Positions 9,384 through 64,000 of a stretch of 64,000 nucleotides of DNA are shown piece by piece (position 1 is the stretch's first letter; every line of letters begins with the position of its first letter). The DNA is from a virus, in the IMG/VR virus record IMGVR_UViG_3300035698_029289, positions 1 to 64,000 of that record, one strand, 5' to 3'. The position numbers were made by a program, and so were the translations under genes. The notes beneath the pieces were generated by a model. That model had not been told where the DNA came from. It did not search any database and saw only the letters and a list, made by a program, of their open reading frames with translations.

Positions 9384-9384
9384 T

Positions 9385-9461: not shown

Positions 9462-9468
9462 TTATTTG

Positions 9469-9598: not shown

Positions 9599-9609
9599 TT
9601 AAGCGGTCA

Positions 9610-9711: not shown

Positions 9712-9713
9712 GT

Positions 9714-16749: not shown

Positions 16750-16860
16750 TTGACAAGACAAAATTTTTGTTGTAGTGTTTAATTAACAGTTACTTGAAGC
16801 GAAAAAGCGCTAGAGGACTGCAATATACCCGAGTGGGCGTGATTGCAGTCCTTTTTATTT
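16750..16860 (+). promoter_or_regulatory. late leader 1: promoter, conserved hairpin, overlapping terminator
   Basis: TTGACA-17-TAGTGT; CAGTTACTT-GA-AGCG-AAAAAG-CGCT-A-GAGGACTG; terminator AGGACTGCAAT/ATTGCAGTCCT-TTTTATTT. Confidence 0.8.
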
Positions 16861-16872
16861 GAATTATTAACT

Positions 16873-18942
16873 ATGGCCCAAAAGAAGAAAGAAAGAAAAC
16901 CAAAAGGTGTTATCGCCTTTTCAGAGTTAAAGAATCACTACGATTTAGCCAATGATGAGACTGACAAAAGACGGACGGGTCGAGGAAAAATCGGAACGAT
17001 TTCTTTTGACGAAGCAGACGAGTTGTTCCGTTCTTGGCTCGATGAAGATAGTTGGCCATATGATGCTCTCCTTTTTGATCCTCGCGTTTTCACTTTTATT
17101 TTTGAAAAGACTTCAAGGTTAATCTCCAACAAACTCAGAGGAAGATTGATTCCCCGAGAAGGTGGAGATATGTTGGCGGCTCATATCAATAACGAGTTAT
17201 TGAGTTTTCAATGGGATCAGGCGACTCATAGCGGCTCAATGATTTCAAAATGGGCTTTAATGGATTTGAATGCGAGGAAGTATGGCGCTGCTTTTGCTTT
17301 GTGTAAATGGCGCTATGAGCTTGCTCCTGATGAGAAAGTTTTGTTTGACGGACCGGGAATGCAAATTTTGAATAATAGAGATTGTCTCCCCGATCCGGCG
17401 GCGACAGACATTGAGTCTTGTAACTGGTTCCAAGCTAGGCAATATGTTACTTTTCAAGACCTTGAAAGGGTTAATGATAGAGCGCGAACGAAGCCTGTTT
17501 ACAAAAATCTTGATAAATTAAGAACAGTAATTAGCCAGAAAGCAGAGAAGAGCGGTGGAGATTCCCGAGACATTAACTGGACATCTCGAAATCGACAAAT
17601 TTCTGGACTTACCACAGATCCGGTTGGAAAAGACGCTGCCTTCAAGACAGTAGAGATTGTGACAGAATACCGGAAAGGTCGCTGGATCACCTTTTCGCCC
17701 CGACATGGAGTCATCCTTCGAGATATTGCCAATCCATATCACAATAATGAGATTCCGATTGTAATGCTTCGCTATTATCCGATCGATGACGACTTGTATG
17801 GCATGAGCGAAATTGAGCCAGTTAAAGGATTGCAAAAGGCAATCAATGCCATCCTCTCTCAATATGTGGATGAAATCAACCAAAAGCTTTATACGCCTAT
17901 TGCTGTCGGTCCTGGTGTTCGGCAGCACACATTGCGATGGGGAAAGGGTGCGAGGTGGATTATGAACAATCCAATGACAGACTTTCGATTGGTTGAATCT
18001 CGGTCGAATGCGGCACAATTCTTCAACAATACCTATTCTGTATTAGTGGCCGCTTTAATGAATTCTATCGGAGAAACTTCTTTGGGAGTTTCCAATATTA
18101 GCAGGTTTCAAGCAGAAAAGACTGCGACTGAGGTGAAACAGCTTGTTTCTCAAAGAAATGCACGGGATAATTTCAATCAGACATTTTTGGGAGAGGCGCT
18201 TAAAAGACAAATGATTCTGTGGCATACCATGAATCAAGTAATGATATTCAGCGATCCAGAAAAGAAATCCTATGTTATTCGGATTATTGGAAGAGACGCA
18301 ATCCGATACTTTGAAGAAAGCGGGATTGGGGCTTATGGCTTGACCGAAGAGGGAGCAAAATTGCTTCAAGAAAACACAGAAAGGACGATGGCAGAAGGAG
18401 GCGAAGAAACAGGAATTCCAGAGGACTTCATGATTCCAATGTCGCCAGTGTCAATGGGAGAAGAAGAGGAGGCTATCCCCAAGTTTTCTCTTGACATGAG
18501 CAAGCAACTTGGTACTTTAGTTATAGAGCCAGAGGATTTAAAAGGAAATTATGATTTCATTGCCGATGTGGAATCGATGGCTTTATCGGCAGGAGAACAG
18601 CAAATGCAAGGAAGAAAAGCTGCTTTCAATATGCTTCTTTCTAATCCGCTGGTAGTAGAATTTTTGGCAAAGGAAAAAGTGAGACCGAAGTTTAAAGATT
18701 TGTTTGTTGCATGGCTTGAGGATGTTGGAATGAAAGATGCTGAGAAGTTCTTTGAAAATATTCCGCCTGAGGAAATGCTTGGTCCACCGGGAATGGGACA
18801 ACCAGGAATGGGTCAGCCCGGAATGGCTCCGCAGGGAATGGGACAGCCACCAATGACAATGGGTAGTCCTATGCCAGGAGGTCCAGGCGGCGTGGCTCCA
18901 TTAGCTCCTTCTCCGAGAGCGAGAGGAGGTGGAACAGTTTAA
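16873..18942 (+). CDS. portal protein (P22-like)
   Basis: About 690 aa after terminase; NPY..NEIP...YGMSEIEPV..LQ..IN, KTATEV; PGMGQ-repeat tail. Confidence 0.9.
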   Translation: MAQKKKERKPKGVIAFSELKNHYDLANDETDKRRTGRGKIGTISFDEADELFRSWLDEDSWPYDALLFDPRVFTFIFEKTSRLISNKLRGRLIPREGGDMLAAHINNELLSFQWDQATHSGSMISKWALMDLNARKYGAAFALCKWRYELAPDEKVLFDGPGMQILNNRDCLPDPAATDIESCNWFQARQYVTFQDLERVNDRARTKPVYKNLDKLRTVISQKAEKSGGDSRDINWTSRNRQISGLTTDPVGKDAAFKTVEIVTEYRKGRWITFSPRHGVILRDIANPYHNNEIPIVMLRYYPIDDDLYGMSEIEPVKGLQKAINAILSQYVDEINQKLYTPIAVGPGVRQHTLRWGKGARWIMNNPMTDFRLVESRSNAAQFFNNTYSVLVAALMNSIGETSLGVSNISRFQAEKTATEVKQLVSQRNARDNFNQTFLGEALKRQMILWHTMNQVMIFSDPEKKSYVIRIIGRDAIRYFEESGIGAYGLTEEGAKLLQENTERTMAEGGEETGIPEDFMIPMSPVSMGEEEEAIPKFSLDMSKQLGTLVIEPEDLKGNYDFIADVESMALSAGEQQMQGRKAAFNMLLSNPLVVEFLAKEKVRPKFKDLFVAWLEDVGMKDAEKFFENIPPEEMLGPPGMGQPGMGQPGMAPQGMGQPPMTMGSPMPGGPGGVAPLAPSPRARGGGTV

Positions 18943-21000: not shown

Positions 21001-21909
21001 ATGGCGTGGGGATTAATTACATATCAAGATGCCGCGCGTAGAGAAGATCTATTGGATGTTATCGGAGATGTATCTCCTGATGAGACTCCACTTTTGACTC
21101 TTTTCGGCACAAGCACGGCAAAAGGAACTCTGCACGAATGGCTGGCATACTCAGTCTCAAGACCAACTTCGGTATCTGCCGATGTTGAAGGAGCTGATAC
21201 CACATTCGGAGATTTGACTCAACCCAACAGAGTAGTCAATGTTACCCAAATTATTAAAGAACCGGTTCAAGTTTCTCGAACCGAGCGACGGGTTAATGTG
21301 GCTGCAATGGGAGATCCGTATGCTTTCCAAAAAGCAGAAGCACTTCGTCGTCTAAAAATGAATATGGAGTATGCTTTACTGAATGCTGCGAAAGCCTCTG
21401 GATCGTCTGGTTTGGCTCGTCAAATGAATGGAATCGATGCTTTCATCACAACTACTGTTACTGCTCGAAACTCAGGAACTTCGTTTTCTGAAACTGAGCT
21501 AGAAGCTATGGTTTCTGATGCCTGGACAACAGTCGATCCCGACAAGGTATTTGACATGCTTCTTTGTACTTTCAAAATCAAGCAGAAAATTGCCGGGTTC
21601 TCTGGAAACTCTACTAGATATATTGATGCAACTGAACGAAGACTTGTTAAAGACGTGTTGGTTTATGATTCCGCTGGTGGATCTCACAGAATCTTTGCAC
21701 ACAAAGATGTGAGGAACTCAGCAGGTTCAACAACTATCTTGGGCCTACGAGAAGATTTGTACAAGACTGCGTATCTCGACAAACCAATGTTTGAAGAACT
21801 TGCTAAAACAGGTGATGCGGACAAGGGTCACTGGGTAACAGAATTTACGCTTGAGTCTATAGCAGAGAAGGCTAGTTTGAAGCGAACAGGGTATAATCAA
21901 AACGGGTAG
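21001..21909 (+). CDS. major capsid protein (SU10/DUF5309-like)
   Basis: REDLLDVI..VSP.ETP, HEW, NVTQII...VQVS.T, RQMNGI, LAKTGDADK....TEFTLE. Confidence 0.92.
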   Translation: MAWGLITYQDAARREDLLDVIGDVSPDETPLLTLFGTSTAKGTLHEWLAYSVSRPTSVSADVEGADTTFGDLTQPNRVVNVTQIIKEPVQVSRTERRVNVAAMGDPYAFQKAEALRRLKMNMEYALLNAAKASGSSGLARQMNGIDAFITTTVTARNSGTSFSETELEAMVSDAWTTVDPDKVFDMLLCTFKIKQKIAGFSGNSTRYIDATERRLVKDVLVYDSAGGSHRIFAHKDVRNSAGSTTILGLREDLYKTAYLDKPMFEELAKTGDADKGHWVTEFTLESIAEKASLKRTGYNQNG

Positions 21910-46912: not shown

Positions 46913-47530
46913 ATGGCCTTGTGTAAATGCGGTTGCGGTCGTGAAACAAAAATTGTTTGTGGTAAACCAAATCGGTTTATTCATGGGCATAGTGGGAATT
47001 TTTATAAAAATGGGCACGAGTTTCAAGGAGACATAGCAAGGTCAAACTATTTCAAAAAAGGTTACACTCCTTGGAACAAAGATAAAAAAGGGGTTTTTTC
47101 TGTGGAAGCACGTAAAAAACAATCAGAAGCCGCCAAAAATCAAAAAAATAGAAATATTGAGGGATTGAAATTAGGCTGGGGATATTGGAGGGATAAACAT
47201 AACCCACATATGGTTGGAGAAAAGAATCCTAATTACAAAGGAGGCATTAGTAAAATTAAAAAGAATAGTCGTCGATTAGACATGGAAACGCTTGAGTATA
47301 AACAATGGCGAAGAGCGGTTTTTAAGAGAGATTATTGGACATGTTTGTCTTGTGGTGAGTCTAAGGGTGGAAATTTTATAGCTCACCATATTAAAAAATA
47401 TGATGACTATCCTTCTTTAAAATATAATGTTGATAATGGATTTACACTTTGTGGAAAATGTCACCTATTTACATATGGGTATGAAGAAGATTATGAAAAA
47501 TATTTTTTGGAGATATTAAAATGGCAATAA
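46913..47530 (+). CDS. HNH endonuclease (NUMOD-type N-terminus)
   Basis: CKCGCG, PWNK, WRRAVFKRDYWTC..C, AHHI, NGFTLCGKCH. Confidence 0.9.
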   Translation: MALCKCGCGRETKIVCGKPNRFIHGHSGNFYKNGHEFQGDIARSNYFKKGYTPWNKDKKGVFSVEARKKQSEAAKNQKNRNIEGLKLGWGYWRDKHNPHMVGEKNPNYKGGISKIKKNSRRLDMETLEYKQWRRAVFKRDYWTCLSCGESKGGNFIAHHIKKYDDYPSLKYNVDNGFTLCGKCHLFTYGYEEDYEKYFLEILKWQ

Positions 47531-48213
47531 CAGTAGACGAGGTACAAAGTCGCATAGCAAGTTTAGTTGATCAGTCAATAACTACTCCTACTCAAACAGG
47601 GAGTGAATATGCGCTAAGATTGAAATATCTGAATCGGGCTATCTCCGAATGGGGACAAGCCTTTGATTGGGAAGCGTTGCGGAAAGATTATTGGCCTGGG
47701 GTAACGGGAGTTTCTCAGGCCTCCATTTCTTTGCCTGACGATTTTCATAAAGTGGCGGGTTTCCCCCTATATTATTCGGGTGGAGTATCCGGAGGTGAAG
47801 AGCGGGAGGTTATTAATGCAGAAGCAACAAAGCTGTATTCTAGCACCGACAAATACTGCTATGTGCTGGGGGACAGGGCAAATGGTCACACCCTAGTCTG
47901 GAGCCCCGGGACGCTAGCTTCTGGCGCCTCTCTGAAGATTCCTTACTATTCTTATGTAACCTCCGTTGCTTCGCCGGCGAATGAAATTATCGTGTCCGAC
48001 CCAGGGTTTGTGGTTAATCGAGTAATTGCCTATATTTTCGAAAGCCGGTCGGATGAGAGGTTTCAGGAAACAGAAGTGAAAGCCCGGGAAAGTTTAATTG
48101 AGATGATTAATTCGGAACAAGTACGGAAATTCTCTTCGTATGGGGCAGGAACGAGCAAAAATGTACAAGGAGATCTCCGGCTCTACCACGGTTTTAGGGT
48201 GGGCCGGGATTAG
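47521..48213 (+). CDS. head-tail adaptor / tail tubular A-like protein
   Basis: LNRAI..W, SLPDDF; sits before nozzle gene. Confidence 0.65.
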   Translation: MAITVDEVQSRIASLVDQSITTPTQTGSEYALRLKYLNRAISEWGQAFDWEALRKDYWPGVTGVSQASISLPDDFHKVAGFPLYYSGGVSGGEEREVINAEATKLYSSTDKYCYVLGDRANGHTLVWSPGTLASGASLKIPYYSYVTSVASPANEIIVSDPGFVVNRVIAYIFESRSDERFQETEVKARESLIEMINSEQVRKFSSYGAGTSKNVQGDLRLYHGFRVGRD

Positions 48214-48216
48214 GCT

Positions 48217-48999
48217 ATGAGGGATAAGAAGGGAAAGTTCCAAAAAGGCCATGCCCCATGGAATAAGGGAAAGACTGGAGTTTATTCGGAAGAACGACTA
48301 GAGGAATTAAGCCATTGTGCCAAAACTGGAGTGACGGGAATGTTGGGGAAAAAGCATAGCGAAGGAACAAAAGAAAAAATGAGCATAGTTAAAAGAGGAA
48401 AAGTGTTTTCCGAAAAACATAAGAAAAACTTAAGCAAGGCACATAGGAAAAGAGGAACAATTCCTCCTAGGTGGTGGGAAGATCCCATTCTTGCCACTAA
48501 AACCATGGGGAAGCTAAAGAAGAAAAAAGTGGTTATTCGGTGTGGAGTTTGTGGAAAAAAGTTTAAAGTTATTCCTTCTAGGGCTAAAACGGCTAATTTC
48601 TGTTCAAAGCAATGTCATAATAAATCAATGATTGGTCGTCTTCTTACTAAAGAGTGGAAAGAAAAAATGATTAAAAATACCCTAATGGCGATGTTAAAAC
48701 GTCCCACCTCTCTTGAAAAACAAATGATTGCCCTAATCAAAAAACACAATCTTCCCTATAAATATGTTGGTGATGGGGGCTTTTTAATAGGCTATAAAAA
48801 TCCCGATTTCGTAAACATTAATGGAGAAAAGAAATTGATTGAAATTGGCAATGAATTTCATCACAAACCGCCATACACGAAGAATCGGAGGAAACACTTC
48901 GCCAAATACGGTTGGGAAAGCTATATTTTTATAGGAGATGAATTGGATGAGGGAAAAATACTAAAAATCCTAGGGAGTAAATTATGTTACAACGATTAA
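48217..48999 (+). CDS. NUMOD3 plus Vsr/DUF559-like endonuclease
   Basis: GKKHSEGTKEKMS; PTSLEK...YKYVGDG...PDF...LIEI...FHH. Confidence 0.8.
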   Translation: MRDKKGKFQKGHAPWNKGKTGVYSEERLEELSHCAKTGVTGMLGKKHSEGTKEKMSIVKRGKVFSEKHKKNLSKAHRKRGTIPPRWWEDPILATKTMGKLKKKKVVIRCGVCGKKFKVIPSRAKTANFCSKQCHNKSMIGRLLTKEWKEKMIKNTLMAMLKRPTSLEKQMIALIKKHNLPYKYVGDGGFLIGYKNPDFVNINGEKKLIEIGNEFHHKPPYTKNRRKHFAKYGWESYIFIGDELDEGKILKILGSKLCYND

Positions 49000-50918
49000 A
49001 ACAACCAAAATTTAAAGCACCACGTCAAGCCGTAGCTGATTGGGACAATTTTCGCGGAGGATTAAATTCTTTACTTCGTCCCACAGAACTTGCAAAGAAC
49101 GAATTGGCTCAAATGGAGAATTTAATGCTTATCGGTCGTGGAGTTCCCACTAAGCGATGGGGAACACAAAATTATTTCCTTGCAGGAGTGACTGGTTACG
49201 GCAGAGGTTTGTTTCACGCCAAATCGGCTGTGGGAACAAGTGAGGTTTTAGGCATTACTGACTGGGGGCTTTTGGTCAAAAGAAGCGGAGCAAGTTATAC
49301 GGTTTTGACTGGTGCTTCCTGGGGATCGGGATATAACCTTGAAGCCACGCAGCTTAATAATAGGGTATATTTGGTCAACGGACAGAGAGAGTTGGTAAGA
49401 TATGACTTTTCCACCCTGACAGGGTTTCCCACATTGTCGGTTCCAGCTGGTGTGGCGGCAACTAACCTTTCGGGGGCAACCGGTGACACTACTTATTCAT
49501 GGAGAATTGCCGCAACTTCTCAAGTGGGAGAAACGCTTGGATCAGCGGCCGTTGCCATGGCGAGCCTGCCCCAAGAACTTTCTGATACGAGCATTAGAGT
49601 TCAATGGACGCCAGTTTCGGCAGCCTCAGGGGACCTTACCGGTTATAATATTTATCGGGGTTCACCCGGTGATGAAACATGGTTGGCTTTTGTGGACGAT
49701 GATACTAGCTCTTATGATGATGCGGGCTTAGATGTATCGCAACTGCGGGTGCCTCAAACCAAAGATACAACCGGAGGACCGATTGCCAAATGGATTATCC
49801 GGTACGAAGACAGATTGATTCTTGCTGGGATTTCTGGTGAACCCACTAAAATCATGATTTCGGGAAGAGTTCCGAACCAAGACAAATTCACTTGGCCTTA
49901 TGGAGGAGGATATGTTTTGGTCGATCCCGACACAGGAGATGAGATAACTGGTCTTGCCGTTCACCAGGGAAAGATTATTGTTTTCAAGGAAAATTCTGTT
50001 TGGCAAGTAACTCTTAGTACAATAACAGTTGGCAATTTCACGATTCTTGAGCCTTCTTATGAATTGATTACTGCTTCTCAGGGTTGCACCAGCCACCGAT
50101 CGATTGTGCCGGTTGAAAACGATTTGCTTTTCTGCAACAGGCAGGGTGTATATATCTTGGGATTCGAACCCAATATTTTGGCAGCTGTTTTGAGAACCAA
50201 TGAGTTGTCAGTGAAAATCCGGCCATTTTTTGAAGCGATTACTCCGACAGACTTTGATGATGCTAGTGCGAATTACTTTGACCACAAGTATGTTTTGTCT
50301 TTTCCTGGTGCCAAAAAATGTATTGTCTTTGATAGGGAAAGAGCCGCTTGGGTCGGACCATGGACCACGGGGTTTGGAACAAACAAGTTTATTAAATATG
50401 TTGATTCGGGCAATGTTGAAAGATTGCTGGGAATAGATGCAGAAGACAATTATGTCAGTGAATTTTCAAAGACGTTGAATAGCGACAAGGGAACTGCCTT
50501 CAGGACTCTTTTGAAAACACGGAAAGAAGATTTTGGAGACTGGACGATTTTCAAGACCATCAATGAATCATTTTTATCTTTCAGGAATGTTTTGGGGAGT
50601 GTTAATATCAATATTTTCTTGGAGGGAAGAGCGGGAGAGATAATCACCGCCAAAACATTTTCCATTGTCAGCCAAAAGGGTGTTTCCGGCTGGGGAACCG
50701 ATCAATGGGGATTGACTCAATGGGGGTTATCAAAGAATGACGCAGAACTGTCTTCAGAAGAATTAATTAGGCAGGCGTTGCTTTATAAAACCGCACGGAC
50801 TTTCCAGGTGGAATTGATTTCGTCTGCCACAAGAGACAACTATGAATTACTAGGCATTAAGACTTTCTCTACCTTGCAAGGGCGTGGCTCAAGCCCATCT
50901 GATTGGAGAGCCTCTTAA
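48984..50918 (+). CDS. tail nozzle / packaged-DNA stabilisation protein (gp10-like)
   Basis: NFRGGLN N-terminus, Fn3-like GYNIYRG, propeller EITGLA...IVFKE...GCTSHRSI. Confidence 0.8.
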   Translation: MLQRLKQPKFKAPRQAVADWDNFRGGLNSLLRPTELAKNELAQMENLMLIGRGVPTKRWGTQNYFLAGVTGYGRGLFHAKSAVGTSEVLGITDWGLLVKRSGASYTVLTGASWGSGYNLEATQLNNRVYLVNGQRELVRYDFSTLTGFPTLSVPAGVAATNLSGATGDTTYSWRIAATSQVGETLGSAAVAMASLPQELSDTSIRVQWTPVSAASGDLTGYNIYRGSPGDETWLAFVDDDTSSYDDAGLDVSQLRVPQTKDTTGGPIAKWIIRYEDRLILAGISGEPTKIMISGRVPNQDKFTWPYGGGYVLVDPDTGDEITGLAVHQGKIIVFKENSVWQVTLSTITVGNFTILEPSYELITASQGCTSHRSIVPVENDLLFCNRQGVYILGFEPNILAAVLRTNELSVKIRPFFEAITPTDFDDASANYFDHKYVLSFPGAKKCIVFDRERAAWVGPWTTGFGTNKFIKYVDSGNVERLLGIDAEDNYVSEFSKTLNSDKGTAFRTLLKTRKEDFGDWTIFKTINESFLSFRNVLGSVNINIFLEGRAGEIITAKTFSIVSQKGVSGWGTDQWGLTQWGLSKNDAELSSEELIRQALLYKTARTFQVELISSATRDNYELLGIKTFSTLQGRGSSPSDWRAS

Positions 50919-52554: not shown

Positions 52555-53132
52555 TGGCAAACATACTTATTAATTCTGATTTTGAGAATGGAAGTGGAGA
52601 CCGAACCACAGAAGGGTGGCTTGGCAATAGTTCTGCTTATGGTACTTATCTTATGGCTGCTTATGGAACTTTATCCTTTCAGGCTACCGCTTATCATGGT
52701 TCTCAGGCTATTAAACTTGATGTTGGACAAAGCTCTTGGCTTGAAGTAAGTAATGTTGATACAAATGATACTAATGCAATCAAGGCCTATTGTCCTGCGA
52801 TTACAGGAAACACAAAATATAAACTTACTGGATGGCAGAAAAGCGATGGCTTCAGCGTTGGTGTTCAAGGATTATGTGTTTATATTAGGGAATTTGATTC
52901 GGATGGAGCTGTTATTGTTAATTTGGCTACGGATGGTATGTTAGGCACTCAAGACTGGACAGAAGTAACACACACTTGGACAACTCACGCTGATGCCGCC
53001 TACATAGGAATTACCTATATAAGGGCACACGGAGATGGAGGAGCTACTGGCGATTTATATGCCGATTACTTTAGTTTGGAAGAAGTAGGAGAAGAAGAAA
53101 AAAACAACATTTATGGATATTTTAATTGCTAG
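52554..53132 (+). CDS. CBM4/9-like carbohydrate-binding virion protein
   Basis: NILINSDFE, YKLTGW.K, GTQDWTE, YADYFSL. Confidence 0.7.
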   Translation: MANILINSDFENGSGDRTTEGWLGNSSAYGTYLMAAYGTLSFQATAYHGSQAIKLDVGQSSWLEVSNVDTNDTNAIKAYCPAITGNTKYKLTGWQKSDGFSVGVQGLCVYIREFDSDGAVIVNLATDGMLGTQDWTEVTHTWTTHADAAYIGITYIRAHGDGGATGDLYADYFSLEEVGEEEKNNIYGYFNC

Positions 53133-53134
53133 AC

Positions 53135-53791
53135 ATGAGAAATAAAAACATTATACATAAATGTAAAAACTGTGGAAAGAAATTTTTCCATCGGTCGAAA
53201 GGAGCTAATAAATATTGTTCTCATAAATGTTATGTCGAACATTATTGGACAAAGGAAAGACGAGAAGCTCAAGCAATAAAAAGTAGAAAAAGAATATTAA
53301 GTAAAAATCCTATGGAAAATAAAGAAAATAGAAAAAAAGTAAGTTTGTCTAAACTAGGAAAAAAAAGAAAGCCATTTAGTAAAAAATGCAAAGAAAATAT
53401 GAGCAATGCTCATAAGGGAGAAAAGAGTTGGTTTTGGGGAAAAAAGGGAAGTCAGCATCCTGGTTGGAGAGGTGGTTTATCATCATTGAATCAATTAATT
53501 AGAAGCAATGGTTTAATGGACTCTTGGAGAAGAAAAATATTCGAAAGAGACAATTTTACTTGTCAGGAGTGTAAAGGAAATGGGCGGTTAGTAGCACATC
53601 ATATTGTTACTTTCATAACTCTCTTGCGAAAAAACCATATAACAACAGTAAAAGAGGCAGAAAAATGTGATGAACTATGGAATCTTGATAATGGTATAAC
53701 TCTATGTAAAAAGTGTCATGACCCTACGATTAAAAGAGAGAAATTATATGAAGAAAGATACAAGGAAATTATTGAAAGTTTCAATGTTTAA
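53135..53791 (+). CDS. HNH endonuclease
   Basis: WRRKIFERDNFTCQEC, AHHI, NGITLCKKCH. Confidence 0.9.
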   Translation: MRNKNIIHKCKNCGKKFFHRSKGANKYCSHKCYVEHYWTKERREAQAIKSRKRILSKNPMENKENRKKVSLSKLGKKRKPFSKKCKENMSNAHKGEKSWFWGKKGSQHPGWRGGLSSLNQLIRSNGLMDSWRRKIFERDNFTCQECKGNGRLVAHHIVTFITLLRKNHITTVKEAEKCDELWNLDNGITLCKKCHDPTIKREKLYEERYKEIIESFNV

Positions 53792-54178: not shown

Positions 54179-54472
54179 ATGAAAGAAAGGTTGTGGAAGG
54201 CAATATCAGAAATAGACGGAGAAATCTTTTCTCTGGGAATGAAAGATGCCGAAATAATCCGCTTACCTGAAAGTGAATGGATTGAAGGAGGAGAACATGG
54301 TATTTTTGCGACAAGACATAAGTCAGATGCCGAAAAAGTTATTTACTCTGCCGAACATAGAAAGGTTTTGTCAATACCATTAAACATGAAAGTGATACCT
54401 ATTATTGGTGAGATAAAGGATGATAGAGGGAAGACAGTAGTTTGTGAAAGGATTTTAATAGAAGGTGAATAA
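54179..54472 (+). CDS. hypothetical protein
   Basis: ORF track. Confidence 0.6.
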   Translation: MKERLWKAISEIDGEIFSLGMKDAEIIRLPESEWIEGGEHGIFATRHKSDAEKVIYSAEHRKVLSIPLNMKVIPIIGEIKDDRGKTVVCERILIEGE

Positions 54473-56432
54473 AGAAATAGGATTACACTATTTAGGGGGT
54501 GACTTTAAGACAAGAACCCAAATCAGACGGAAACTTCTCTCTGAGGAGTTGACTGCTCCGCTCCAATTAACAAAACCTGCTTTAGTTAGAACCTTCGCTG
54601 AATGGCAGCCGATTATAAACAGACGGCAAAAAGAATACCAGGAACTCCTTGGAATACCAGAAACAATCCACATTGAAATCGCTACTGAAAAACCAATCCT
54701 GCTTGTCCCCATAGGGGATGTTCATGCCGAGCATCCTGAAACCAATCTTGAACAATTTGGTAAAGACATAGATTTAGCAAAATCAGTTAATGCGTATTTT
54801 ATCACTTTAGGAGATTTAACCAATAGTATCTTCTGGAAAGCAGAACCTTCCTTAATGACTGCCCAAGAGTCAACAATGTATATCAGGTCGGCCTTGAAAT
54901 ATATGGCGGAAGATGGACACCTTTTGGCTTCATGGCTTGGCGACCATGATTGTCTTGATGAGAAAACGGAAGTATATACAAAACGAGGTTGGTTAAAATG
55001 GAATGAGCTTAATGAAAAGGATAATCTTTTGACTATAAACCCCGATGGTGGGTTGTTAGAATGGCATAAATACGAAAAGAAAATTGTTGAAGATTTTGAT
55101 GGAGAGCTAATTCATATCAAGGGTAAAAATATTGACTTGTTGGGAACAGAAAACCATCGGGTGTTTTATCAAAAGCGAAGAACTGATAAATATGATTTTA
55201 TCCCCTTGGAACAGTTTGCTAGTTTAAAGTGGGCAGACCATTATGGAATTCCTAATGCTTCAACTTTTAATTTTAGTGATTATCCGATATCAGATGAACT
55301 AATTCGATTGGTGGCGTGGTTGATTACTGATGGGTGGATTCAAACAAGAAAAGGCTATGGTTATCAACGGGTATGTTATACACAAAAGGAAGAGGATGCT
55401 CATTTAATTACTGATATTTTGGATGGACTTGGTTTTAAGTATTCTGCTAAAAGAAGGATTAGAACAAGAGATAAAATTGATGGCATGAAAATTAAATCCT
55501 TAAAGCCATCTATTGATATAGGAGTTTGTTCCAAAGATTCTAAGAAAATTTTAGATTTGATTAAAGATAAAAAATCCATGCCGTCATGGGTTTATAAATT
55601 GAGTGATAGGCAGTTTGACGCTTTTCTGGATTCTTTGATTGATGGTGATGGAACTCGGCTTCCGAGAATGAAGAATTGTGCTTGTTTCTATCAAAAGAGC
55701 AAGAAATTGATTGATGAATTACAGGCTTTGTGTGCGATGCACAATATTAAAACCAACATTTACGAGTATAAAAACCGAATGGGGAATAAGCAATATCGGC
55801 TCAATATAAATTTTAGGAAAGACACTCGATTGGTTTCTCCAAAAGCGGTTAGAGAAAATTACAAGGGGAAGATTTGGGATGTTTCAATACCACCTAACAG
55901 AAACTTCTTTGTTAGAAGAAATGGCAAAGCGTATTTTACTGGTAATTCTTGGGCTTTTGACAAACACGGAAGCCATACACTTTACGCTGATTTTTGGGAG
56001 AAGTTTAACGCCCATTTACTAGACGGAGTATCTTATGTTGATATTGGACTTAATAACGGAGATACAGTCCAGAAATACGGGATAGTTGGCTCTCATCGCC
56101 ACCCTGGCCACAGTATCTACAATTCCAGCCATCAATGTTTAAGACAATGGAGAGATGAGGGAGTAGGGTCTCTTATTAGTATTTCTGCTCACAAACACAC
56201 TAAGGCCCATAATCAACAAACCCATAAACTTTATGGTGGAAAAGAGGTTGTGTTTCATTCTGTTGCCATAGGAACATATAAAGAATCAGACCGATATAGC
56301 AGAAAACACGGTTGGCCACGCAAGGGAGAAAAGACAGCTGGAGCGTTTGGAATAGTGCTTTATCCAGGCAAGGAAAAAATTCACATTTTCTGGGAATTAG
56401 AAGATGCGGTAGACGCACTAAGCAAGGCTTGA
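54465..56432 (+). CDS. calcineurin-like metallophosphoesterase with intein
   Basis: GDVH, GDL, GDHD, SH, AHKH motifs. Confidence 0.85.
   Translation: MNKEIGLHYLGGDFKTRTQIRRKLLSEELTAPLQLTKPALVRTFAEWQPIINRRQKEYQELLGIPETIHIEIATEKPILLVPIGDVHAEHPETNLEQFGKDIDLAKSVNAYFITLGDLTNSIFWKAEPSLMTAQESTMYIRSALKYMAEDGHLLASWLGDHDCLDEKTEVYTKRGWLKWNELNEKDNLLTINPDGGLLEWHKYEKKIVEDFDGELIHIKGKNIDLLGTENHRVFYQKRRTDKYDFIPLEQFASLKWADHYGIPNASTFNFSDYPISDELIRLVAWLITDGWIQTRKGYGYQRVCYTQKEEDAHLITDILDGLGFKYSAKRRIRTRDKIDGMKIKSLKPSIDIGVCSKDSKKILDLIKDKKSMPSWVYKLSDRQFDAFLDSLIDGDGTRLPRMKNCACFYQKSKKLIDELQALCAMHNIKTNIYEYKNRMGNKQYRLNINFRKDTRLVSPKAVRENYKGKIWDVSIPPNRNFFVRRNGKAYFTGNSWAFDKHGSHTLYADFWEKFNAHLLDGVSYVDIGLNNGDTVQKYGIVGSHRHPGHSIYNSSHQCLRQWRDEGVGSLISISAHKHTKAHNQQTHKLYGGKEVVFHSVAIGTYKESDRYSRKHGWPRKGEKTAGAFGIVLYPGKEKIHIFWELEDAVDALSKA
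54951..55946 (+). mobile_element. intein with LAGLIDADG endonuclease (332 aa)
   Basis: HD|CLDEKTEVYTKRGW, TENH block B, LITDGW and LIDGDG, FFVRRNGKAYFTGN|S. Confidence 0.93.
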
Positions 56433-56507
56433 AAATAAGATGTCCAGTATTTTCTTTTCTTATTGGAGAAATGGTATAATAATGAAAATGAGGACAGAAT
56501 AAATATT

Positions 56508-57026
56508 ATGCCAAAAGGAGTTTATTTTCGTACTGAAGCAACTAGAAAGAAAATAAGTGAAGCCCGTATGGGTAAAAAGCTTTCTGAAAAAACTAAACGG
56601 AAATTGAGTGAAATTCATAAACGGATTGGCACTAGGCCACTTTCTCGTAAAGGCATCATTTTGAGTGAAGAGCTTAAAAAGAAACTAAGTAAAATTCATA
56701 AAAAAATCGGAACTATGCCGCCACACCCTAAAGGAAAAGACCATCCTAACTGGAAAGGTGGCTTCTCGCTTTATCCTATTGATTGGACAGAAACCCTAAA
56801 AGAATCTATCAGACAAAGAGATAACTGTGTTTGTCAGTTATGCGGAATACATCAAGGCGAATTAAAAGGATTTCATAAGAAACTAGATGTTCACCATATT
56901 GATTATAATAAAGATAATCTAAATCCAGACAACTTGATTTCACTTTGTAAAAGTTGTCACTTGAAAACTAATTATAATCGGGAATATTGGCTTGAATATT
57001 TTCAACAAAAGGAAGTGAAAATATAA
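56508..57026 (+). CDS. NUMOD3 plus HNH endonuclease
   Basis: SEKTKRKLSE repeats; IRQRDNCVCQLC, VHHIDYNKDN..NLISLCKSCH. Confidence 0.92.
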   Translation: MPKGVYFRTEATRKKISEARMGKKLSEKTKRKLSEIHKRIGTRPLSRKGIILSEELKKKLSKIHKKIGTMPPHPKGKDHPNWKGGFSLYPIDWTETLKESIRQRDNCVCQLCGIHQGELKGFHKKLDVHHIDYNKDNLNPDNLISLCKSCHLKTNYNREYWLEYFQQKEVKI

Positions 57027-57723: not shown

Positions 57724-59022
57724 ATGGGATGGTTAAGTAATATGTGGGGAAAAGTTCAGGATGTTTGGGGAGGAGGGCTTCCGGCACGGCCACAAGAACA
57801 GAGGCCAATTCTTCCTTTAGGAGTAGGTCCTGCGGGAATTACGCCACCATGGGGAGCTAGGCCAGTTCAGGCTGCTGCTCCAACTACACCTCAAACTCAA
57901 TGGAGGACTCCTGAGCAAGAAGCTCAATTAAGGGCTTTTGATATTGCTCAGCGCAGTGGTGGAGTACCATCTGGTGGAAGTTATCCAGGAGCAGCTCCAG
58001 GGCCAGCAACAGCAGGGCCAGCAGCAGCAGGGCCAACAGGTCCTTCTGCAGAAGAGATAGCAAGACAAAGAGAATTGGAAGAGATTGAAGGCATATTCGG
58101 ACAAACTAAAGACTATCTTGGAACTCTCGAAGCACGATATCGGGAAGAACTTCCGGCATCTGAGCAGAGAGTAGCAACTTCTTATGAAGCAGCATTAGTT
58201 CCCATTGAGGAAAGAGCTGCTACTCAAGCAGGTCTTATTTCAGGTCAGGAGGAAACGGTTTCGAAAGAAGAGGCTTCTGCCTTGGCTCAAGCTCGCCAGC
58301 GCTATGGTGAACTTCAACAGGGAATTATTTCTCGGTTTGGAGCTGGAACCTCAGCAGGACCAGCAGCAAGCGAGATTTTGGCAAGGGAGACACAGAGAAC
58401 GTTTGCGGGTGTTCAAGAAGCAGCTCAAACAGCCATGACTGATCTTACTTCAGAGTCACGACGGCTTTCAGATTTTGTCGGCAGACAAAAGGAAGTCCTG
58501 GCAAAACAAAAAGCCGATAGCATCAAAGAAATTAGACTCAAGTTCAATGCTGGATTGGCTCAAATTCAAGCGATGAAAGGTCAATCAGAGATAGAAAAAG
58601 CAAAGGCTCGCCTTGGAACAATGCAAGCATATCAACAGCAGGCATTTCAAATTGCACAGGCAGACAAAGCCTTTGAAAGACAACTGGAGTTATTCGAAAC
58701 AACCAAACAGGATCAACTATCACAGCAATTCATAACGAAGACTGGAATTGCACCTGAGGCAGCTTTAACATATCAAAGACTTCTAGCGGGTGGCAAAGGA
58801 TATACACCGGCCGCAGCAGCAGAAGTAATGGAATTTCCAACCACTGGATTCGGAGGAGGAGTAAGTCCTTTCGCTACGGGATGGCAACATGACCCTGCTT
58901 CTAATATTTGGTATAACGAACAAACGGGAGAAAGGCTTCCTTACGGACAATCTCCGGGAGGAGCAGGGCAAGGTATGGGTGCGGGAAGTATGTACGACTT
59001 GAATATACCAGGTCAAGGATAA
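57724..59022 (+). CDS. internal virion / ejection protein
   Basis: Gln/Ala/Gly-rich coiled coil; RBS GGGAGGTGA; post-nozzle position. Confidence 0.7.
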   Translation: MGWLSNMWGKVQDVWGGGLPARPQEQRPILPLGVGPAGITPPWGARPVQAAAPTTPQTQWRTPEQEAQLRAFDIAQRSGGVPSGGSYPGAAPGPATAGPAAAGPTGPSAEEIARQRELEEIEGIFGQTKDYLGTLEARYREELPASEQRVATSYEAALVPIEERAATQAGLISGQEETVSKEEASALAQARQRYGELQQGIISRFGAGTSAGPAASEILARETQRTFAGVQEAAQTAMTDLTSESRRLSDFVGRQKEVLAKQKADSIKEIRLKFNAGLAQIQAMKGQSEIEKAKARLGTMQAYQQQAFQIAQADKAFERQLELFETTKQDQLSQQFITKTGIAPEAALTYQRLLAGGKGYTPAAAAEVMEFPTTGFGGGVSPFATGWQHDPASNIWYNEQTGERLPYGQSPGGAGQGMGAGSMYDLNIPGQG

Positions 59023-59031: not shown

Positions 59032-62000
59032 ATGCCGAATAACGCTTTACAGGAAGCAACCAGTTTCTTTAGGCGTGGCGTGGCTACAATAAAGTCTCTT
59101 CCGAAAAAGATTAAGAAAGCAGTCGTGCCAAGCCTGGAAAAGTTAGAACGTGACTATCAAAAAGAAGTCGCAAAGGCTTTTAGTGGTTACAAAAAGCTCA
59201 AAGTAAGTTACCCCGGACAAATCGCTCAAAGAGCCTATCAGTTGGCAAGGGCTAGACCAGCAGAGCGTCTTCAAGTCTTCAAAGGAGTCCCAGAAGCCGC
59301 TTGGAAAGGAATAATAAAGCCTTTGGTGAAACCGCTCGGAGAAATTCCTGTTATGCCAGCTGGAGGGTTTTTTCAACCGCCTCCAACTGAAATTAAAACT
59401 ACTGGCCCAAAACCTTGGCAATTTAAAGTTACAACCAAGCCAAGAGAAGAACCACCAATTAAATTAAAAGAATTCTTCGAGCCAAAAGAATATATCGGCG
59501 GCAAAGTAGGAAGGGCAATATCAGGAACAATTTACGACATTATCGGTTCTTTAACGCCAGAACACTACATTAGAGCGATTCCCAAATTTGGCTATAAAAT
59601 TTCTCCAAAAGGTGCATTTAAAGGGGCTTTGTCTATGCTTGGCATTTCTCAAATCTTGAAGAAATTGAACACAGGCAAAGACTTAACTAAAGAAGAGGCG
59701 GCTGTAGTTGGAATAATGGGGGCAGTCATTGGAGCGGTGGAACCCCGCCCACTTAGTTCAGCTTCTACCACGGAATTAGGAGCGGCTCGGAAAAGATTGG
59801 CTAAAAATTATGGTTTTGAGTTAAAAGATTTTAGTAATTCGGAGATATTAAAAAGGAAAGCGACAAAGGTTTGGTTAGATATTCATCCAGACAGACATCC
59901 AGAGAATCCTGCTGCTTATGAAAAACCAATGGCTCAATTCAACCGAGATTTTGAAATCGTTAGTTCTGCTAAACCTCCCTCTCTCAAGCTACCGAATATT
60001 TTAGAGTGGCTCAAAACCCTGTGGAGTAAACCAAAAGCAGGAGAAAAGGCTTTAATAAAGGTTAAGCAACCACCTGTTGGAATGCCTCCTGTTCCAGTCG
60101 GAGCAGGTCCCCTTGTTCCTGTGGGTCCACCACCTCCACCAAGTGCCATAGTTCCGCCCAAACTGCCAATTGGAGAGGGCAGGATTTCTCCAGCCGAACA
60201 GCAACGAATAACCCAAATGAAAATTAGCGAAGCCGAGACTAAGGCAATAGAAGAAATGAAGCCGAAGCTAAGAGTCCGGGGAGCATTGGAGGGATTGCCA
60301 CTTGAGGCGGCAATTCCGACACCGCTGGAAGAAGCGATAAGGGCAAAAGAACCTAGAATCAAAATAGAACCAGAACCTTTGGTAAAAGTTAGGCCACCAG
60401 TAGAGAAAGCCCCAGCAATTCCCACAGAACTAGAACCATTTAAATTTCAAGATGTCAACCAAGAGAAAATTATACACATGGAGTGGGATAAAGGAAATCC
60501 ATATCGTCACGATCTTGAAGGTGCTGGAGATATTTTCAGAGAATTAACAAAAAGAAGGTCTGACTTTGGTTATATTACAGAAAAGGTAAATAGAATTGAT
60601 AGGCTACTAACCGGCATTGAAACTGGGAAATTACATCCAGATGATAGCTTGGAGGCAGCATTGAAGCAAAATGCTGATAGATTAAAACAACTTGAAAGTC
60701 TTTGGAATAAACAACCAATTACAAACGAGGCACAAGGCGTAGCAAGAGACTTAAATATTGCGTTGATTAAGGGAGATTATAAAACCGCAAGAACACTACT
60801 TGAACAAATAAAATCTCCAGATTTCTACGCCCAAGTTACTAAAGAAGTAAAACCACCAGTAGAGAAAGTGCCAGGCGTATCAATAGATGTAGCTGAACTC
60901 GATAGGGCTGTAGCGAAGCTACCGAAAGAACCCGTTGATAATATTATTGCAAAGATTAAGGAAAAACTTGCAGTAGAGACTAATTCTCTTGAGGTTTCTG
61001 CTCTTCGACAAGAATTAAAGGTGTTTATAGAAGGGAAAAAGATGGGTGCTACCGAATTTCCTAATATGGAATTATCAGCTGAACTTAACAAGTTAACTCG
61101 GGATGGTGTTCCAGTAGCAGAGGCACTAGAAAGGGTTTTATCAAAACCATCAACAGAAGAAGCATTAGGGGTAGCAAAAGAAGCCAGAATTTTGGCTGAA
61201 GCAAGAAAAGAAGTTAAAGAAGAGTTTGGAGCGGGCTATGAATTGAAAACTGGGGGAGAACTACAAAACATTCTAAAAAGAATGGTTCCTACAAAAGAAG
61301 GAGAATGGTCATTGCCTCGAATTATAGATGGAGAACCGGTAAAGTGGGATGAAATCGGCAGAGACTTAGGTTTCCCCGGCAAGAAGTTTAAGGAAATAGA
61401 ACTGACAGAGGGAGAAAATGTTGTTGTTGATGCTGATCTCTACAATATGTTTGTTCAACTCAAGGGCGGTCAACCGGGTGCCAGACCGACAAGAATAAAA
61501 GTGAGGAAGCCAAGAATTTCAAAAGCCAGAATCAAGAAGTGGCATGAGAAATTGCCTTCAGAAGCTTTCAAGGTAGTTCAAAACTACTTGGGTGAAGTTA
61601 CGGGGGTAGTCGTTGAGCCTAGCAAGAAGGTTAGAGCTAAAATTATTTCACGGGAGCTACAACCAAAGATAAAAGAAGAAAGAGAGTTTTTGAAAAGCCT
61701 CGGGAAAGCCCCTTCTTTGCCAAAGCAAGTTGACAAGATTGCGAGAATGATAAGAAAGGCGACAGATGATGCTCTCAAAAAGAAGATTGCCACTAGAACC
61801 ACAGAAGCGGGCAATGAGGTTCCAATAATAAGAGGCGGTCAAACTATAGGTCGAGAGTTAGTTGATGATGCGAGCAAACTAAAAGACATTCGTTCAATAG
61901 AAAAAATTGGTGTTGATTATGAGCGGAATTTCGAGAAAGTGTTTGGGGATAGAATAGGATTGGTAAAGAGAGAAATCCTTAATCCTTATCTTGATGCTAA

Positions 62001-64000
62001 AACTGAGAGGTCGGACTTTGAAGCAATGAAAAGAGAAGAGTTAACGGAAAAAATTGTTGAGAAATATGGTATCCGCAAGGGGTCGAAAGAATCGGCGGCA
62101 GTCCAGGCATATGGAGAAAAAGAGATGAGCCTGGAAGATTTGCAGAAAGGGTTCCCCGAAAAATGGGAAGGCATTGTTAAGGCGGATGAATGGTTTAGAA
62201 AAGAATATGACGCACTTCTTCTAAAAGTCAACAAGATTAGGGTGCAAATAGGGAAAAAACCAATCGAGGCACGAGAGGATTATTATCGTCACTTTTGGGA
62301 ACTATCTGGCTTTGAGGGGTTTGTCAATGTTTTCAGACAAAGCTATGAAGTCGATCCTCTCTTGGTCGGTGTTTCCGAGTATACCCAACCCATTAGCCGC
62401 TGGTTGTCTTTCGCCCAGCGACGATTCGGAATCGGCGGTTATAAAATGGATGCCATCGGCGGCTATCTTAATTATCTCAAGCCGGCAAGTTATGCCATTT
62501 ATATCGATCCTCATATCGGGAAATTTAGGGCATTGAAAGATGCATTAGCGGAACAGACAAAAGACACCAAACACTTGAACAACTTTATTTGGTTTTTGAA
62601 TCAATATGCCAATGGGTTGGCAGGTAAAACTAATGCCCTTGATCGCCCTATCAACGATATCTTGGGGCGGAAGTTGAGCATTTTGGTTAGAGGTTTAAAT
62701 CGACGAATTAAAAACAATATCATCTTGGGGAACCTTAGTCCACAATTGGCTCAAGTTCTTAACCTTCCTCAGTCATTGGCGACTGCTGGAGTGAAAAATA
62801 ATATGGCAGCAAGTTGGGAGGCGATCACAAATGGCATTGTTAGGGAAAAAGGGAAAGACTTTGTTTTTGAAAACTCGGGGTTCATACGCGAAAGAAGTCG
62901 GGCATATAAGAAATTCGATCCCACTTTATTTGAGAAACCGAGTCAACTTGCTGGATGGATTGGCAGGACACTAGAAGAACTTACCACACGAATTACTTGG
63001 GGAGCCCAATTTAGAAGTGCTATTGAAAGGGGGCTGGACAAAGAAGAGGCAATCCGTTTTGCGGAAAGAGAAACAAAGAGAGTAATGGCTGGACGGTTAG
63101 TCGGAGATTTGCCGATTGCCTATCAATCCCAATATCTTGGCAATATGGCTTTAGCTTTTCAACTTGAGGTTGGCAATGCAATTCTTTATTACAAGGATAT
63201 TGTTTCAGAGCAAATTCCTTTTACTAAAGGTTGGAAAAAAGTTCTTGGAACTCTTGTCAAATTAATGGTTTGGTCATGGGCATTTAATGCAGTATTTAAG
63301 AGGATGCGTGGGAATAAGCCACTTTTAGACCCAATAGATGCTGTTACTGATGCTCTTTTCGAAGAAGACATGACTGCTCTTGAAAGAGGAGGAAGGCTGG
63401 TTGGTGAATTCCTTGCAAATGTTCCGGGCGGACACTACCTTGCTCGACTTTATCCCGAGGAAGGAATTATGATACCGACAGCAATAGAAGAAGAACCGAT
63501 TCGTTTGCCGACCAGAAGAGCATTGTTCGGAAGAGAATTTGCGGGAAGATGGGGGGTTCCACCCGTTATTTCCGGCCTGACTAGGCCCGAATTGATTATC
63601 CCTCAGGTGGGAGGAGCTCAAATCAAAAAAACATGGGACGCTTGGCAGGCAGTCAAGCGCGGAGCTTCCGTCACTGCTACTGGTAGGGAAAGATTTCCCA
63701 TTGAAGGCCTTGCTGATAAAATCCAAGCCCTTCTTTTCGGACAATATTCAATCCCAGAAGCGCAAGAATATTTTGATGAACTGGAGAAAATTGATAGGCT
63801 CAAAAGACAAGAAATTAGCGAACGTATGGATGAGGCTGCTACTGCCATGGCTTTTATCAGAGATTACCAACGAGTGGCAACTCCGGAAGAACGATTAAAG
63901 ATTTTCAATGATTATAAAAGCAAGGGATTGCTTAATGAAAGAGTTGAAGCAAGAATCAAGCGATATGTAAAGGAACAAAGGAAGGAAATCGGAGTAACCG
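59032..64000 (+). CDS. giant ejection / polyvalent protein (>1650 aa, truncated by window)
   Basis: ATG 59032 after AAGGAG; frame appears open to the end and is absent from the track because it has no stop; J-domain at about 59785-59961. Confidence 0.85.
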   Translation, partial: MPNNALQEATSFFRRGVATIKSLPKKIKKAVVPSLEKLERDYQKEVAKAFSGYKKLKVSYPGQIAQRAYQLARARPAERLQVFKGVPEAAWKGIIKPLVKPLGEIPVMPAGGFFQPPPTEIKTTGPKPWQFKVTTKPREEPPIKLKEFFEPKEYIGGKVGRAISGTIYDIIGSLTPEHYIRAIPKFGYKISPKGAFKGALSMLGISQILKKLNTGKDLTKEEAAVVGIMGAVIGAVEPRPLSSASTTELGAARKRLAKNYGFELKDFSNSEILKRKATKVWLDIHPDRHPENPAAYEKPMAQFNRDFEIVSSAKPPSLKLPNILEWLKTLWSKPKAGEKALIKVKQPPVGMPPVPVGAGPLVPVGPPPPPSAIVPPKLPIGEGRISPAEQQRITQMKISEAETKAIEEMKPKLRVRGALEGLPLEAAIPTPLEEAIRAKEPRIKIEPEPLVKVRPPVEKAPAIPTELEPFKFQDVNQEKIIHMEWDKGNPYRHDLEGAGDIFRELTKRRSDFGYITEKVNRIDRLLTGIETGKLHPDDSLEAALKQNADRLKQLESLWNKQPITNEAQGVARDLNIALIKGDYKTARTLLEQIKSPDFYAQVTKEVKPPVEKVPGVSIDVAELDRAVAKLPKEPVDNIIAKIKEKLAVETNSLEVSALRQELKVFIEGKKMGATEFPNMELSAELNKLTRDGVPVAEALERVLSKPSTEEALGVAKEARILAEARKEVKEEFGAGYELKTGGELQNILKRMVPTKEGEWSLPRIIDGEPVKWDEIGRDLGFPGKKFKEIELTEGENVVVDADLYNMFVQLKGGQPGARPTRIKVRKPRISKARIKKWHEKLPSEAFKVVQNYLGEVTGVVVEPSKKVRAKIISRELQPKIKEEREFLKSLGKAPSLPKQVDKIARMIRKATDDALKKKIATRTTEAGNEVPIIRGGQTIGRELVDDASKLKDIRSIEKIGVDYERNFEKVFGDRIGLVKREILNPYLDAKTERSDFEAMKREELTEKIVEKYGIRKGSKESAAVQAYGEKEMSLEDLQKGFPEKWEGIVKADEWFRKEYDALLLKVNKIRVQIGKKPIEAREDYYRHFWELSGFEGFVNVFRQSYEVDPLLVGVSEYTQPISRWLSFAQRRFGIGGYKMDAIGGYLNYLKPASYAIYIDPHIGKFRALKDALAEQTKDTKHLNNFIWFLNQYANGLAGKTNALDRPINDILGRKLSILVRGLNRRIKNNIILGNLSPQLAQVLNLPQSLATAGVKNNMAASWEAITNGIVREKGKDFVFENSGFIRERSRAYKKFDPTLFEKPSQLAGWIGRTLEELTTRITWGAQFRSAIERGLDKEEAIRFAERETKRVMAGRLVGDLPIAYQSQYLGNMALAFQLEVGNAILYYKDIVSEQIPFTKGWKKVLGTLVKLMVWSWAFNAVFKRMRGNKPLLDPIDAVTDALFEEDMTALERGGRLVGEFLANVPGGHYLARLYPEEGIMIPTAIEEEPIRLPTRRALFGREFAGRWGVPPVISGLTRPELIIPQVGGAQIKKTWDAWQAVKRGASVTATGRERFPIEGLADKIQALLFGQYSIPEAQEYFDELEKIDRLKRQEISERMDEAATAMAFIRDYQRVATPEERLKIFNDYKSKGLLNERVEARIKRYVKEQRKEIGVT

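Follow-up and report, generated by a model that had tools for sequence, protein, structure and literature searches.

The window analysed here, a stretch of 64,000 nucleotides corresponding to bases 1-64000 of the IMG/VR record IMGVR_UViG_3300035698_029289 (designated G000, linear, 73,979 bp, approximately 78% complete), contains most of a giant open reading frame (ORF). This ORF, P0003, lies on the + strand from position 59032 to the end of the window at 64000, continues to G000:64725 and encodes 1,897 amino acids (aa) in the full record. Close to its N-terminus the protein carries a segment that, on family-level sequence comparison, is judged to be a genuine, divergent J-domain homologue with a probability of about 0.9. 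The J domain belongs to a portable N-terminal leader module formed by an N-terminal peptide, a Gly-rich hydrophobic hairpin, the J domain itself, a Trp/Lys-rich helix and a Pro-rich linker. This module heads giant (~1,800-2,300 aa) phage-type polyvalent proteins. The occurrence of the J module in approximately 27 related giant proteins suggests that the phages use the host DnaK to handle the giant protein.

The J domain and its leader module

A preliminary description of the window had placed a DnaJ-type J domain inside this ORF, following a hydrophobic segment. The 59 residues quoted there are reproduced letter for letter by the translation of window 59785-59961 (+ strand), in a single open frame. 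The HPD tripeptide is found at 59884..59892 (+), as residues H285, P286 and D287 of the 1,897-aa ORF, and aligns to H33-P34-D35 of E. coli DnaJ. When the segment alone is compared with the Pfam DnaJ profile (PF00226), it scores 16.1 bits (E 0.012; cut-off 27.8) and only the profile positions 12-42 are covered. A six-frame search of the record detects no DnaJ signal apart from this weak match and, in all four records that constitute the synteny evidence (G000, L002, L003 and G001), the sole DnaJ-like signal falls inside the giant ORF. In a sequence search of the Protein Data Bank (PDB) with the segment, the 15 best matches are all J domains (best E 0.0015), with alignments that begin at helix II, include HPD and reach as far as helix III does.

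To collect the relatives of this region, 1.84 billion representative proteins were searched exhaustively with HMMER, using residues 1-345 of P0003 as the query. The search retrieves 26 relatives, all metagenomic, with lengths of 630-2,274 aa and E-values from 7e-25 to 1e-4. Together with P0003 they form the set of 27 sequences, in approximately 27 clusters at 50% identity, to which the counts below refer. The matches span P0003 residues ~136-344, comprising the hydrophobic region and the J-like segment, and are always placed near the N-terminus. The J region is the best-conserved part of the module, with a mean pairwise identity of 42.5%, compared with 30-33% in the flanks and 17% just past residue 336. 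The HPD tripeptide is kept in 23 of the 27 sequences and its proline in all of them. The four HPD-less relatives, P0125, P0127, P0137 and P0143 (NPE, SPD, APR and FPE, respectively), retain the rest of the J-like module and may be Tim16-like degenerate copies.

A Pfam scan of the 27 proteins finds DnaJ in four. The gathering score is reached at the homologous position in three proteins: P0136 (36.3 bits), P0148 (35.5) and P0145 (27.8), to which P0003 is homologous with E-values of 2.8e-11 to 1.2e-4 against the 1.84 billion proteins. The comparison with PF00226 that the preliminary description had proposed thus fails for the segment taken alone and succeeds for three of its relatives. The family profile searched against the PDB gives 13 matches, all of them J domains (best E 1.6e-4), with the SV40 large and small T antigens among them. 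When a set of bona fide J domains, composed of E. coli DnaJ and seven phage J proteins, is aligned to the family with hhalign, the alignment spans 49 columns, starting in helix II and finishing in helix III, with a probability of 94.4% (E 9.3e-8).

The structural models were obtained with AlphaFold. In the absence of an alignment the expected helices are formed, and the best Foldseek match of this model in the PDB is a J domain, with a non-significant E of 2.5. With the family alignment, the J domain (aa 245-314; 59764..59973, +) is modelled at a predicted local distance difference test (pLDDT) score of 91-96. The model contains helix I (246-260), a short helix (264-268), helix II (270-284) and helix III (294-313), with HPD in the loop between the last two. 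It predicts a compact helical fold with the antiparallel hairpin of helices II and III, as in the J fold. Foldseek returns nothing significant for the alignment-based model. In a wide structural search of the same model, the J domains of the polyomavirus T antigens are the top matches, and at least 14 of the 50 listed are J domains, including those of Tim14, P58IPK, auxilin, DNAJC12, DNAJB8, ERdj5 and JAC1. The arrangement helix II-HPD-helix III read by the preliminary description from the letters is therefore borne out at family level by sequence, profile and fold.

The residues Y25, K26, H33, D35 and F47 of DnaJ contact the nucleotide-binding domain and the linker of DnaK (PMC13012618). At the DnaJ contact positions, the family has an aromatic residue in place of Y25 in 23 of the 27 sequences, arginine or lysine at K26 in 19, phenylalanine or tyrosine at F47 in 21 and tyrosine or phenylalanine at Y54 in 24. 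P0128 and P0136 are examples of relatives whose helix II is canonical. The retained HPD, together with this pattern of contact residues, is hard to explain without selection for contact with an Hsp70.

The J domain is preceded by a predicted helical hairpin (aa 192-235; 59605..59736, +) with modelled helices at 192-213 and 220-235. The second helix is the hydrophobic segment (residues 223-236, window 59698-59739), which is found where the preliminary description had noticed it and corresponds to a conserved, glycine-rich helix. A GxxxGxxxP motif (G230, G234 and P238) is nearly invariant in it. The structural matches of the hairpin are weak and those that can be classified are hairpins of membrane proteins. 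Downstream of the J domain lies a Trp/Lys-rich amphipathic segment (aa 316-335; 59977..60036, +), in which W326 and W331 are nearly invariant and a low-confidence helix is modelled at model residues 137-147. This segment, which may constitute a helix IV or an interface-binding helix, leads into a proline-rich linker (aa ~340-480; 60049..60471, +), which is probably extended and, as indicated by the 17% identity past residue 336, is not conserved in sequence. At the other end of the module, the conserved N-terminal peptide (aa 1-56; 59032..59199, +) opens with a motif that is invariant in alignment A3. These first 56 residues are common to further giant proteins, such as P0149, which matches residues 1-56 at 52% identity, and constitute a possible packaging or targeting signal.

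The leader module is the only part in common among giant proteins whose bodies are unrelated. In sequence terms, the exchange of bodies behind a fixed leader looks like cargo swapping. Since the module remains constant while the cargo changes, its role is probably generic to the handling of giant proteins and not aimed at a particular host target.

Proposed recruitment of the host DnaK and possible roles

No Hsp70 gene is found in the 74 kb of G000, a record which is ~78% complete, and the partner of the J domain would therefore be the host DnaK. The J domain of P0003 probably engages this chaperone. In the proposed mechanism, the giant protein would be packaged in the virion and would leave it via the narrow tail channel in a largely unfolded state. 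The small J domain near the N-terminus would refold at the cytoplasmic face of the membrane. Subsequently, it would trigger ATP hydrolysis in the host DnaK via its HPD, and DnaK would clamp the adjacent extended linker and the chain that follows. DnaK would then refold, and perhaps ratchet in, the ~1,500 residues behind the J domain. The recruitment would act in cis, much as membrane-tethered J proteins do in the import motors of organelles, and the DnaK ratchet that the preliminary description had proposed is plausible. In this scheme, the packaging in the virion, the closeness to a membrane, the engagement of DnaK and the post-ejection timing are all inferred. The specific assignment of a post-entry refolding or pulling role is tentative, with somewhat less than even odds. 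More doubtful is a phage import-motor adaptor, in which the leading J domain at the inner membrane face would allow the host DnaK and ATP to pull and refold the giant protein, possibly also pulling the first attached DNA out of the tail channel.

Several observations weigh against this scheme or parts of it. The Pfam score of the P0003 segment is below the cut-off; the score is poor because P0003 is the most divergent member of its family. P0003 has A277, T278 and M300 at the positions of DnaJ Y25, K26 and F47, and its loop past HPD is longer, by approximately five residues. These three substitutions lower the confidence in the activity of the P0003 copy with respect to that of the family and leave the homology unaffected; helix II of P0003 is still basic (K274, R275, K276 and K279). 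The loss of HPD in four of the 27 sequences indicates that Hsp70 stimulation is dispensable in some lineages. Concerning the membrane, a Kyte-Doolittle scan over 19 residues, for which the usual membrane-helix threshold is 1.6, gives a maximum of 1.38 in P0003 and of 0.86-1.53 in the relatives. All these values are below the threshold, the apolar residues number approximately 14, and from its sequence the hydrophobic segment is not a confident transmembrane helix. Finally, neither the PHROG scan nor the search of the PDB with the core profile finds homology of the giant protein to a characterised ejection protein, with a distant kinship being possible at such sensitivity.

The same observations feed the alternatives concerning the nature of the domain. 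A chance resemblance, with an HPD tripeptide in a helical region that lacks the J fold, would accommodate the weak single-sequence Pfam match and the lack of a significant Foldseek result. The transitive homology to relatives that reach the Pfam cut-off, the hhalign probability of 94%, the PDB sequence matches exclusively to J domains and the place of J domains at the top of the wide structural search all speak otherwise. This family-level sequence evidence already contradicts a chance resemblance, which is extremely improbable. A degenerate J-like domain, related to active ones as Tim16/Pam16 is to Tim14, would retain the fold to serve as a structural or docking element of the virion or ejectosome, with the stimulation of Hsp70 lost. 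It is suggested by the three non-canonical DnaK-contact positions, by the four relatives without HPD and by the score of P0003 under the Pfam cut-off. On the other hand, HPD is present in P0003 and in 23 of the 27 sequences, the proline is invariant, and the family consensus retains the aromatic-basic pair of helix II and the equivalents of F47 and Y54. Such a degenerate domain is quite improbable.

Two further alternatives accept an active J domain and place its action elsewhere. In the producer cell, the J domain would emerge first from the ribosome and recruit DnaK in cis to the nascent 1,900-aa chain, which DnaK would hold soluble or packaging-competent until its incorporation into the procapsid; no post-ejection role would be involved. 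The N-terminal position, the very long multi-domain bodies of whatever content and the adjacent Pro-rich linker fit this explanation equally well. It leaves unexplained why the J domain is strictly coupled to the hydrophobic glycine-zipper hairpin and the Trp/Lys-rich helix, and most giant phage proteins, including at least 120 core relatives of P0003, manage without a J domain. An exclusive action in the producer cell is considered rather unlikely. Alternatively, a delivered or early-made protein would hijack DnaK in trans to remodel or inactivate host targets. The parallels would be the stabilisation of sigma-32 by Rki of phage RB43, a proven phage J protein that acts on the host DnaK and sigma-32 (PMC3486835), and the dismantling of complexes bound by the downstream domains of polyomavirus T antigens. 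No other structural matches rank above the T-antigen J domains, which also occupy the N-terminus of a viral protein with several domains; in addition, relatives of P0003 carry domains of anti-defence type, such as 2H/Acb1-like and Dam methylase. The generic role expected for a leader that stays fixed in front of changing bodies points away from a dedicated host target, and a takeover of this kind is improbable.

A use of the host DnaK in handling the giant protein would bear on a wider question. The exit of giant proteins through a channel a few nanometres wide, and the recovery of their function in the host, are an open problem. A conserved J domain at the head of such proteins provides a concrete and testable hypothesis, in which the host DnaK does the work, and adds a chaperone-recruiting domain to the repertoire of polyvalent proteins. 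The combination of a fixed leader with interchangeable effector bodies is useful for spotting delivered phage proteins in metagenomes. If the dependence on DnaK is true, the chaperone status of the host would be a determinant of susceptibility to these phages. Should the import motor be true, bacterial viruses would have a counterpart of the translocation driven by Tim14/mtHsp70 or Sec63/BiP, and protein ejection by a phage would for the first time be seen to draw its energy from a host chaperone.

The protein body and its genomic context

The body of P0003 contains a conserved core (aa 952-1570; 61885..63741, +), whose fold has no known match. Relatives of residues 1000-1560 are found in at least 276 large phage or prophage proteins of 1,043-3,320 aa, and none of the best 120 core relatives carries the J module. 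Dozens of polar, Gly and Pro residues are invariant in the core, for example DYYRHF at 1083-1088. The core has no match in Pfam, NCBIfam, PHROG or the PDB; its profile gives only low-complexity noise against the PDB, and a Pfam scan of six core relatives finds nothing. A conserved core present in at least 276 proteins and lacking a family match indicates a widespread, uncharacterised domain of polyvalent proteins. Some core relatives carry ART-PolyVal, PBECR3 and LPD3, which are Pfam domains defined on polyvalent proteins, and others Zeta toxin, DNA methylase or RadC. One is named by UniRef as 'Large polyvalent protein associated domain-containing'. The core relatives include proteins from Bacillus, Paenibacillus, Peptococcaceae and Omnitrophica records.

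The relatives of the N-terminal module carry LPD38 (149 bits, P0124), a GH19 lysozyme-like domain (P0126), Dam methylase (P0134), a 2H/Acb1-like phosphoesterase (P0130) and GNAT. In the catalogue of Iyer et al. 2017 (PMC5512222), LPD38, lysozyme and 2H occur exclusively in phage-type polyvalent proteins, for which the authors predict packaging in the head and injection together with the DNA. P0003 as a whole matches no Pfam family at E <= 0.001 and no NCBIfam family, and the giant ORF (P0002) matches no PHROG family at E <= 0.01. A word-based homologue search with residues 150-420 returns only P0003 itself. At the C-terminal end, a domain at aa 1582-1716 (from window 63775) is common to P0134, P0136 and P0148, and some core relatives (e.g. 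P0069 and P0114) match the start of the C-terminal region, at aa ~1563-1707. The protein finishes in a very basic tail with repeated K-x-K-x-P-like motifs, which also ends the L002-type giant proteins.

P0003 starts at the ATG at 59032, which is preceded by a GGAG Shine-Dalgarno sequence 6 nt ahead and by the stop codon of the upstream gene. This neighbour, placed directly upstream (57724..59022, +), encodes 432 aa without a family match, is syntenic in relatives and is a candidate companion internal protein of the giant protein. The late block on the + strand comprises a terminase-like gene (14939-15814), the portal (16843-18942) and the major head gene (21001-21909), followed by a long glycosyltransferase region. 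Further downstream are an adaptor-like gene (47521..48213, +), with a Pfam SU10_adaptor score of 23.2 bits that is below the cut-off, and a nozzle- or tail-hub-like gene of 644 aa (48984..50918, +). In PHROG, the latter matches tail, internal virion and virion structural proteins; by tblastn it also matches, with E 1e-34, a gene whose annotation reads 'phage stabilization protein'. Between the nozzle-like and the 432-aa genes lie small genes interrupted by HNH endonuclease genes, and a gene for a 655-aa phosphoesterase-like protein. On the 3' side, the giant gene is followed by a 243-aa gene, the endolysin and then the replication genes on the other strand. The late block closes with the endolysin/amidase-type gene (G000:65454-66494; L011:1454-2494), the second gene after the giant gene, and the minus-strand replication genes past it include HNH, AAA ATPase and SSB.

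Four HNH/NUMOD3-type homing-endonuclease genes are present at window 46913-47530, 48217-48999, 53126-53791 and 56463-57026. Their location among the genes for tail and internal proteins makes the distance between the nozzle and the giant gene greater than in L002 and L003. In the 655-aa ORF (54465-56432), residues 57-164 match a DNA-repair-exonuclease/phosphoesterase PHROG and residues 160-335 match another PHROG; only approximately 166 of its residues align to a 321-aa homologue in L002, which fits the insertion of an element, for instance an intein. On the minus strand, window 7133-9787 contains 12 clustered tRNA genes (His, Phe, Glu, Asp, Ala, Ser, Tyr, Gly, two Gln, Trp and Asn).

The gene order adaptor, nozzle, intervening genes, 432-aa gene and giant gene is conserved in G000, L002 and L003. 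The identities of the L002 and L003 proteins to those of G000 are 49-53% for the adaptor, 61% for the 643-aa nozzle, approximately 53% for a 237-aa homologue and 31-35% for the 420-428-aa protein. The giant genes of L002 (9865-16065) and L003 (9470-15799) encode 2,066-2,109 aa, and their similarity to P0003 is limited to the N-terminal module, with ~34% identity over ~180 aa. The G000-type core and the L002-type body are unrelated (hhalign probability 0.4%). The closest relative of P0003, P0123, is encoded in G001, a complete 56-kb phage with terminal repeats. When G001 is read across the record ends, the nozzle homologue is located ~5 kb upstream of the giant gene; no match to the 432-aa protein is found in this record.

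Phages of the P22 and T7 types encode ejection proteins in the slot past the tail hub. The preliminary description had named the product of the ORF a giant ejection protein. The protein is indeed giant (1,897 aa), and a role in ejection is indirectly supported by synteny and by the polyvalent-type domains of the relatives; homology to known ejection proteins is the part that was not found. 'Ejection protein' is thus a reasonable label, based on gene position and on the prediction for polyvalent proteins, and the most suitable reading of P0003 is that of a polyvalent protein of phage type, encoded in the slot of the ejection proteins. A tape-measure protein was also considered for the giant ORF and rejected: its neighbours are adaptor- and nozzle-like, neither a tube nor a sheath family appears among the scanned ORFs, and the core, with its many invariant Gly, Pro and polar residues, does not look like a coiled coil.

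Comparison with known J-domain and polyvalent systems

The P0003 family has helix II, the HPD loop and helix III in common with the J domain of E. coli DnaJ (residues 1-70, PF00226). DnaJ also has a G/F region, a zinc finger and a C-terminal client-binding domain, which are absent from P0003. Compared with DnaJ, P0003 has a longer helix I and an extra short helix, and its J domain lies within a phage protein of 1,897 aa, at residues 245-314. The membrane-tethered J proteins Tim14/Pam18 (with Tim16), Sec63 and bacterial DjlA would be analogous to P0003 in mechanism only. The hydrophobic segment of P0003 lacks the length and the hydrophobicity of a confident membrane helix, and there is no homology apart from the J domain. 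Among polyomavirus proteins, the T antigens (large, middle and small) have, as P0003, an N-terminal J domain in a multi-domain viral protein. These are proteins of eukaryotic viruses that have Hsc70 as partner and act in trans on Rb-family complexes, and they have no relationship with P0003 beyond the J fold.

The podovirus ejection proteins (T7 gp14/gp15/gp16 and P22 gp7/gp20/gp16) are encoded, as P0003, past the tail hub, and P0003 is the largest protein of its block. A further likeness lies in the moderately hydrophobic helices of P0003, which could be buried before ejection and inserted afterwards. T7 gp16 has a cell-wall hydrolase domain, as do relatives of P0003. The podovirus ejection proteins partly unfold and then refold on exit (PMC8954989). 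A review of these proteins names no energy source or folding helper, and its sole mention of a chaperone is in the title of a reference on a periplasmic chaperone (PMC8954989). In a full-text literature search, no paper connected J domains with ejection proteins or with internal virion proteins.

The phage-type polyvalent proteins (PMC5512222) are, as P0003, very large and encoded among virion genes, and their bodies are shuffled between relatives. They are defined by at least two catalogued domains of disparate activity; P0003 itself has no Pfam-recognised one, whereas the relatives of its module and of its core carry them. The main text of Iyer et al. 2017 (PMC5512222) contains no mention of DnaJ, J domain, Hsp70 or DnaK.

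The leader module has a restricted distribution in the collections searched. Its tblastn comparison with 50,697 cultured or GenBank phage records gives no match, no prophage copy is found with alignment A3 in 185,579 prokaryote genomes, and a search of viral contigs for related loci with P0003 and with P0136 returns nothing. J-domain genes as such are present in phages: tblastn with the E. coli J domain finds them in 72 of the 50,697 phage records. These 72 records are concentrated in jumbo phages, namely Lak Prevotella phages, PA5oct-like phages, Atu_ph07 and Cellulophaga phi17:2. The J genes of the phage collection are mostly small and stand-alone, and the annotated ones are labelled DnaJ/CbpA-like. 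Two 'human fecal' phage records with unannotated J-domain matches were inspected as candidates and discarded, as they encode stand-alone J proteins of 212 and 220 aa and not giant proteins.

Rki (ORF 057w) of the T4-like phage RB43 is the first functional phage-encoded J protein and acts on the host DnaK and on sigma-32; a complementation assay with swapped J domains has been carried out for it (PMC3486835). Rki and P0003 both contain phage-encoded J domains for which the expected partner is the host DnaK. Rki and the DnaJ/CbpA-like phage genes are small and stand-alone, whereas in P0003 the J domain forms one module of a giant protein whose gene lies among those of the virion. J proteins of phages are therefore already known, and what P0003 and its relatives contribute is a new architectural variant, a J domain as the N-terminal module of a giant phage protein.

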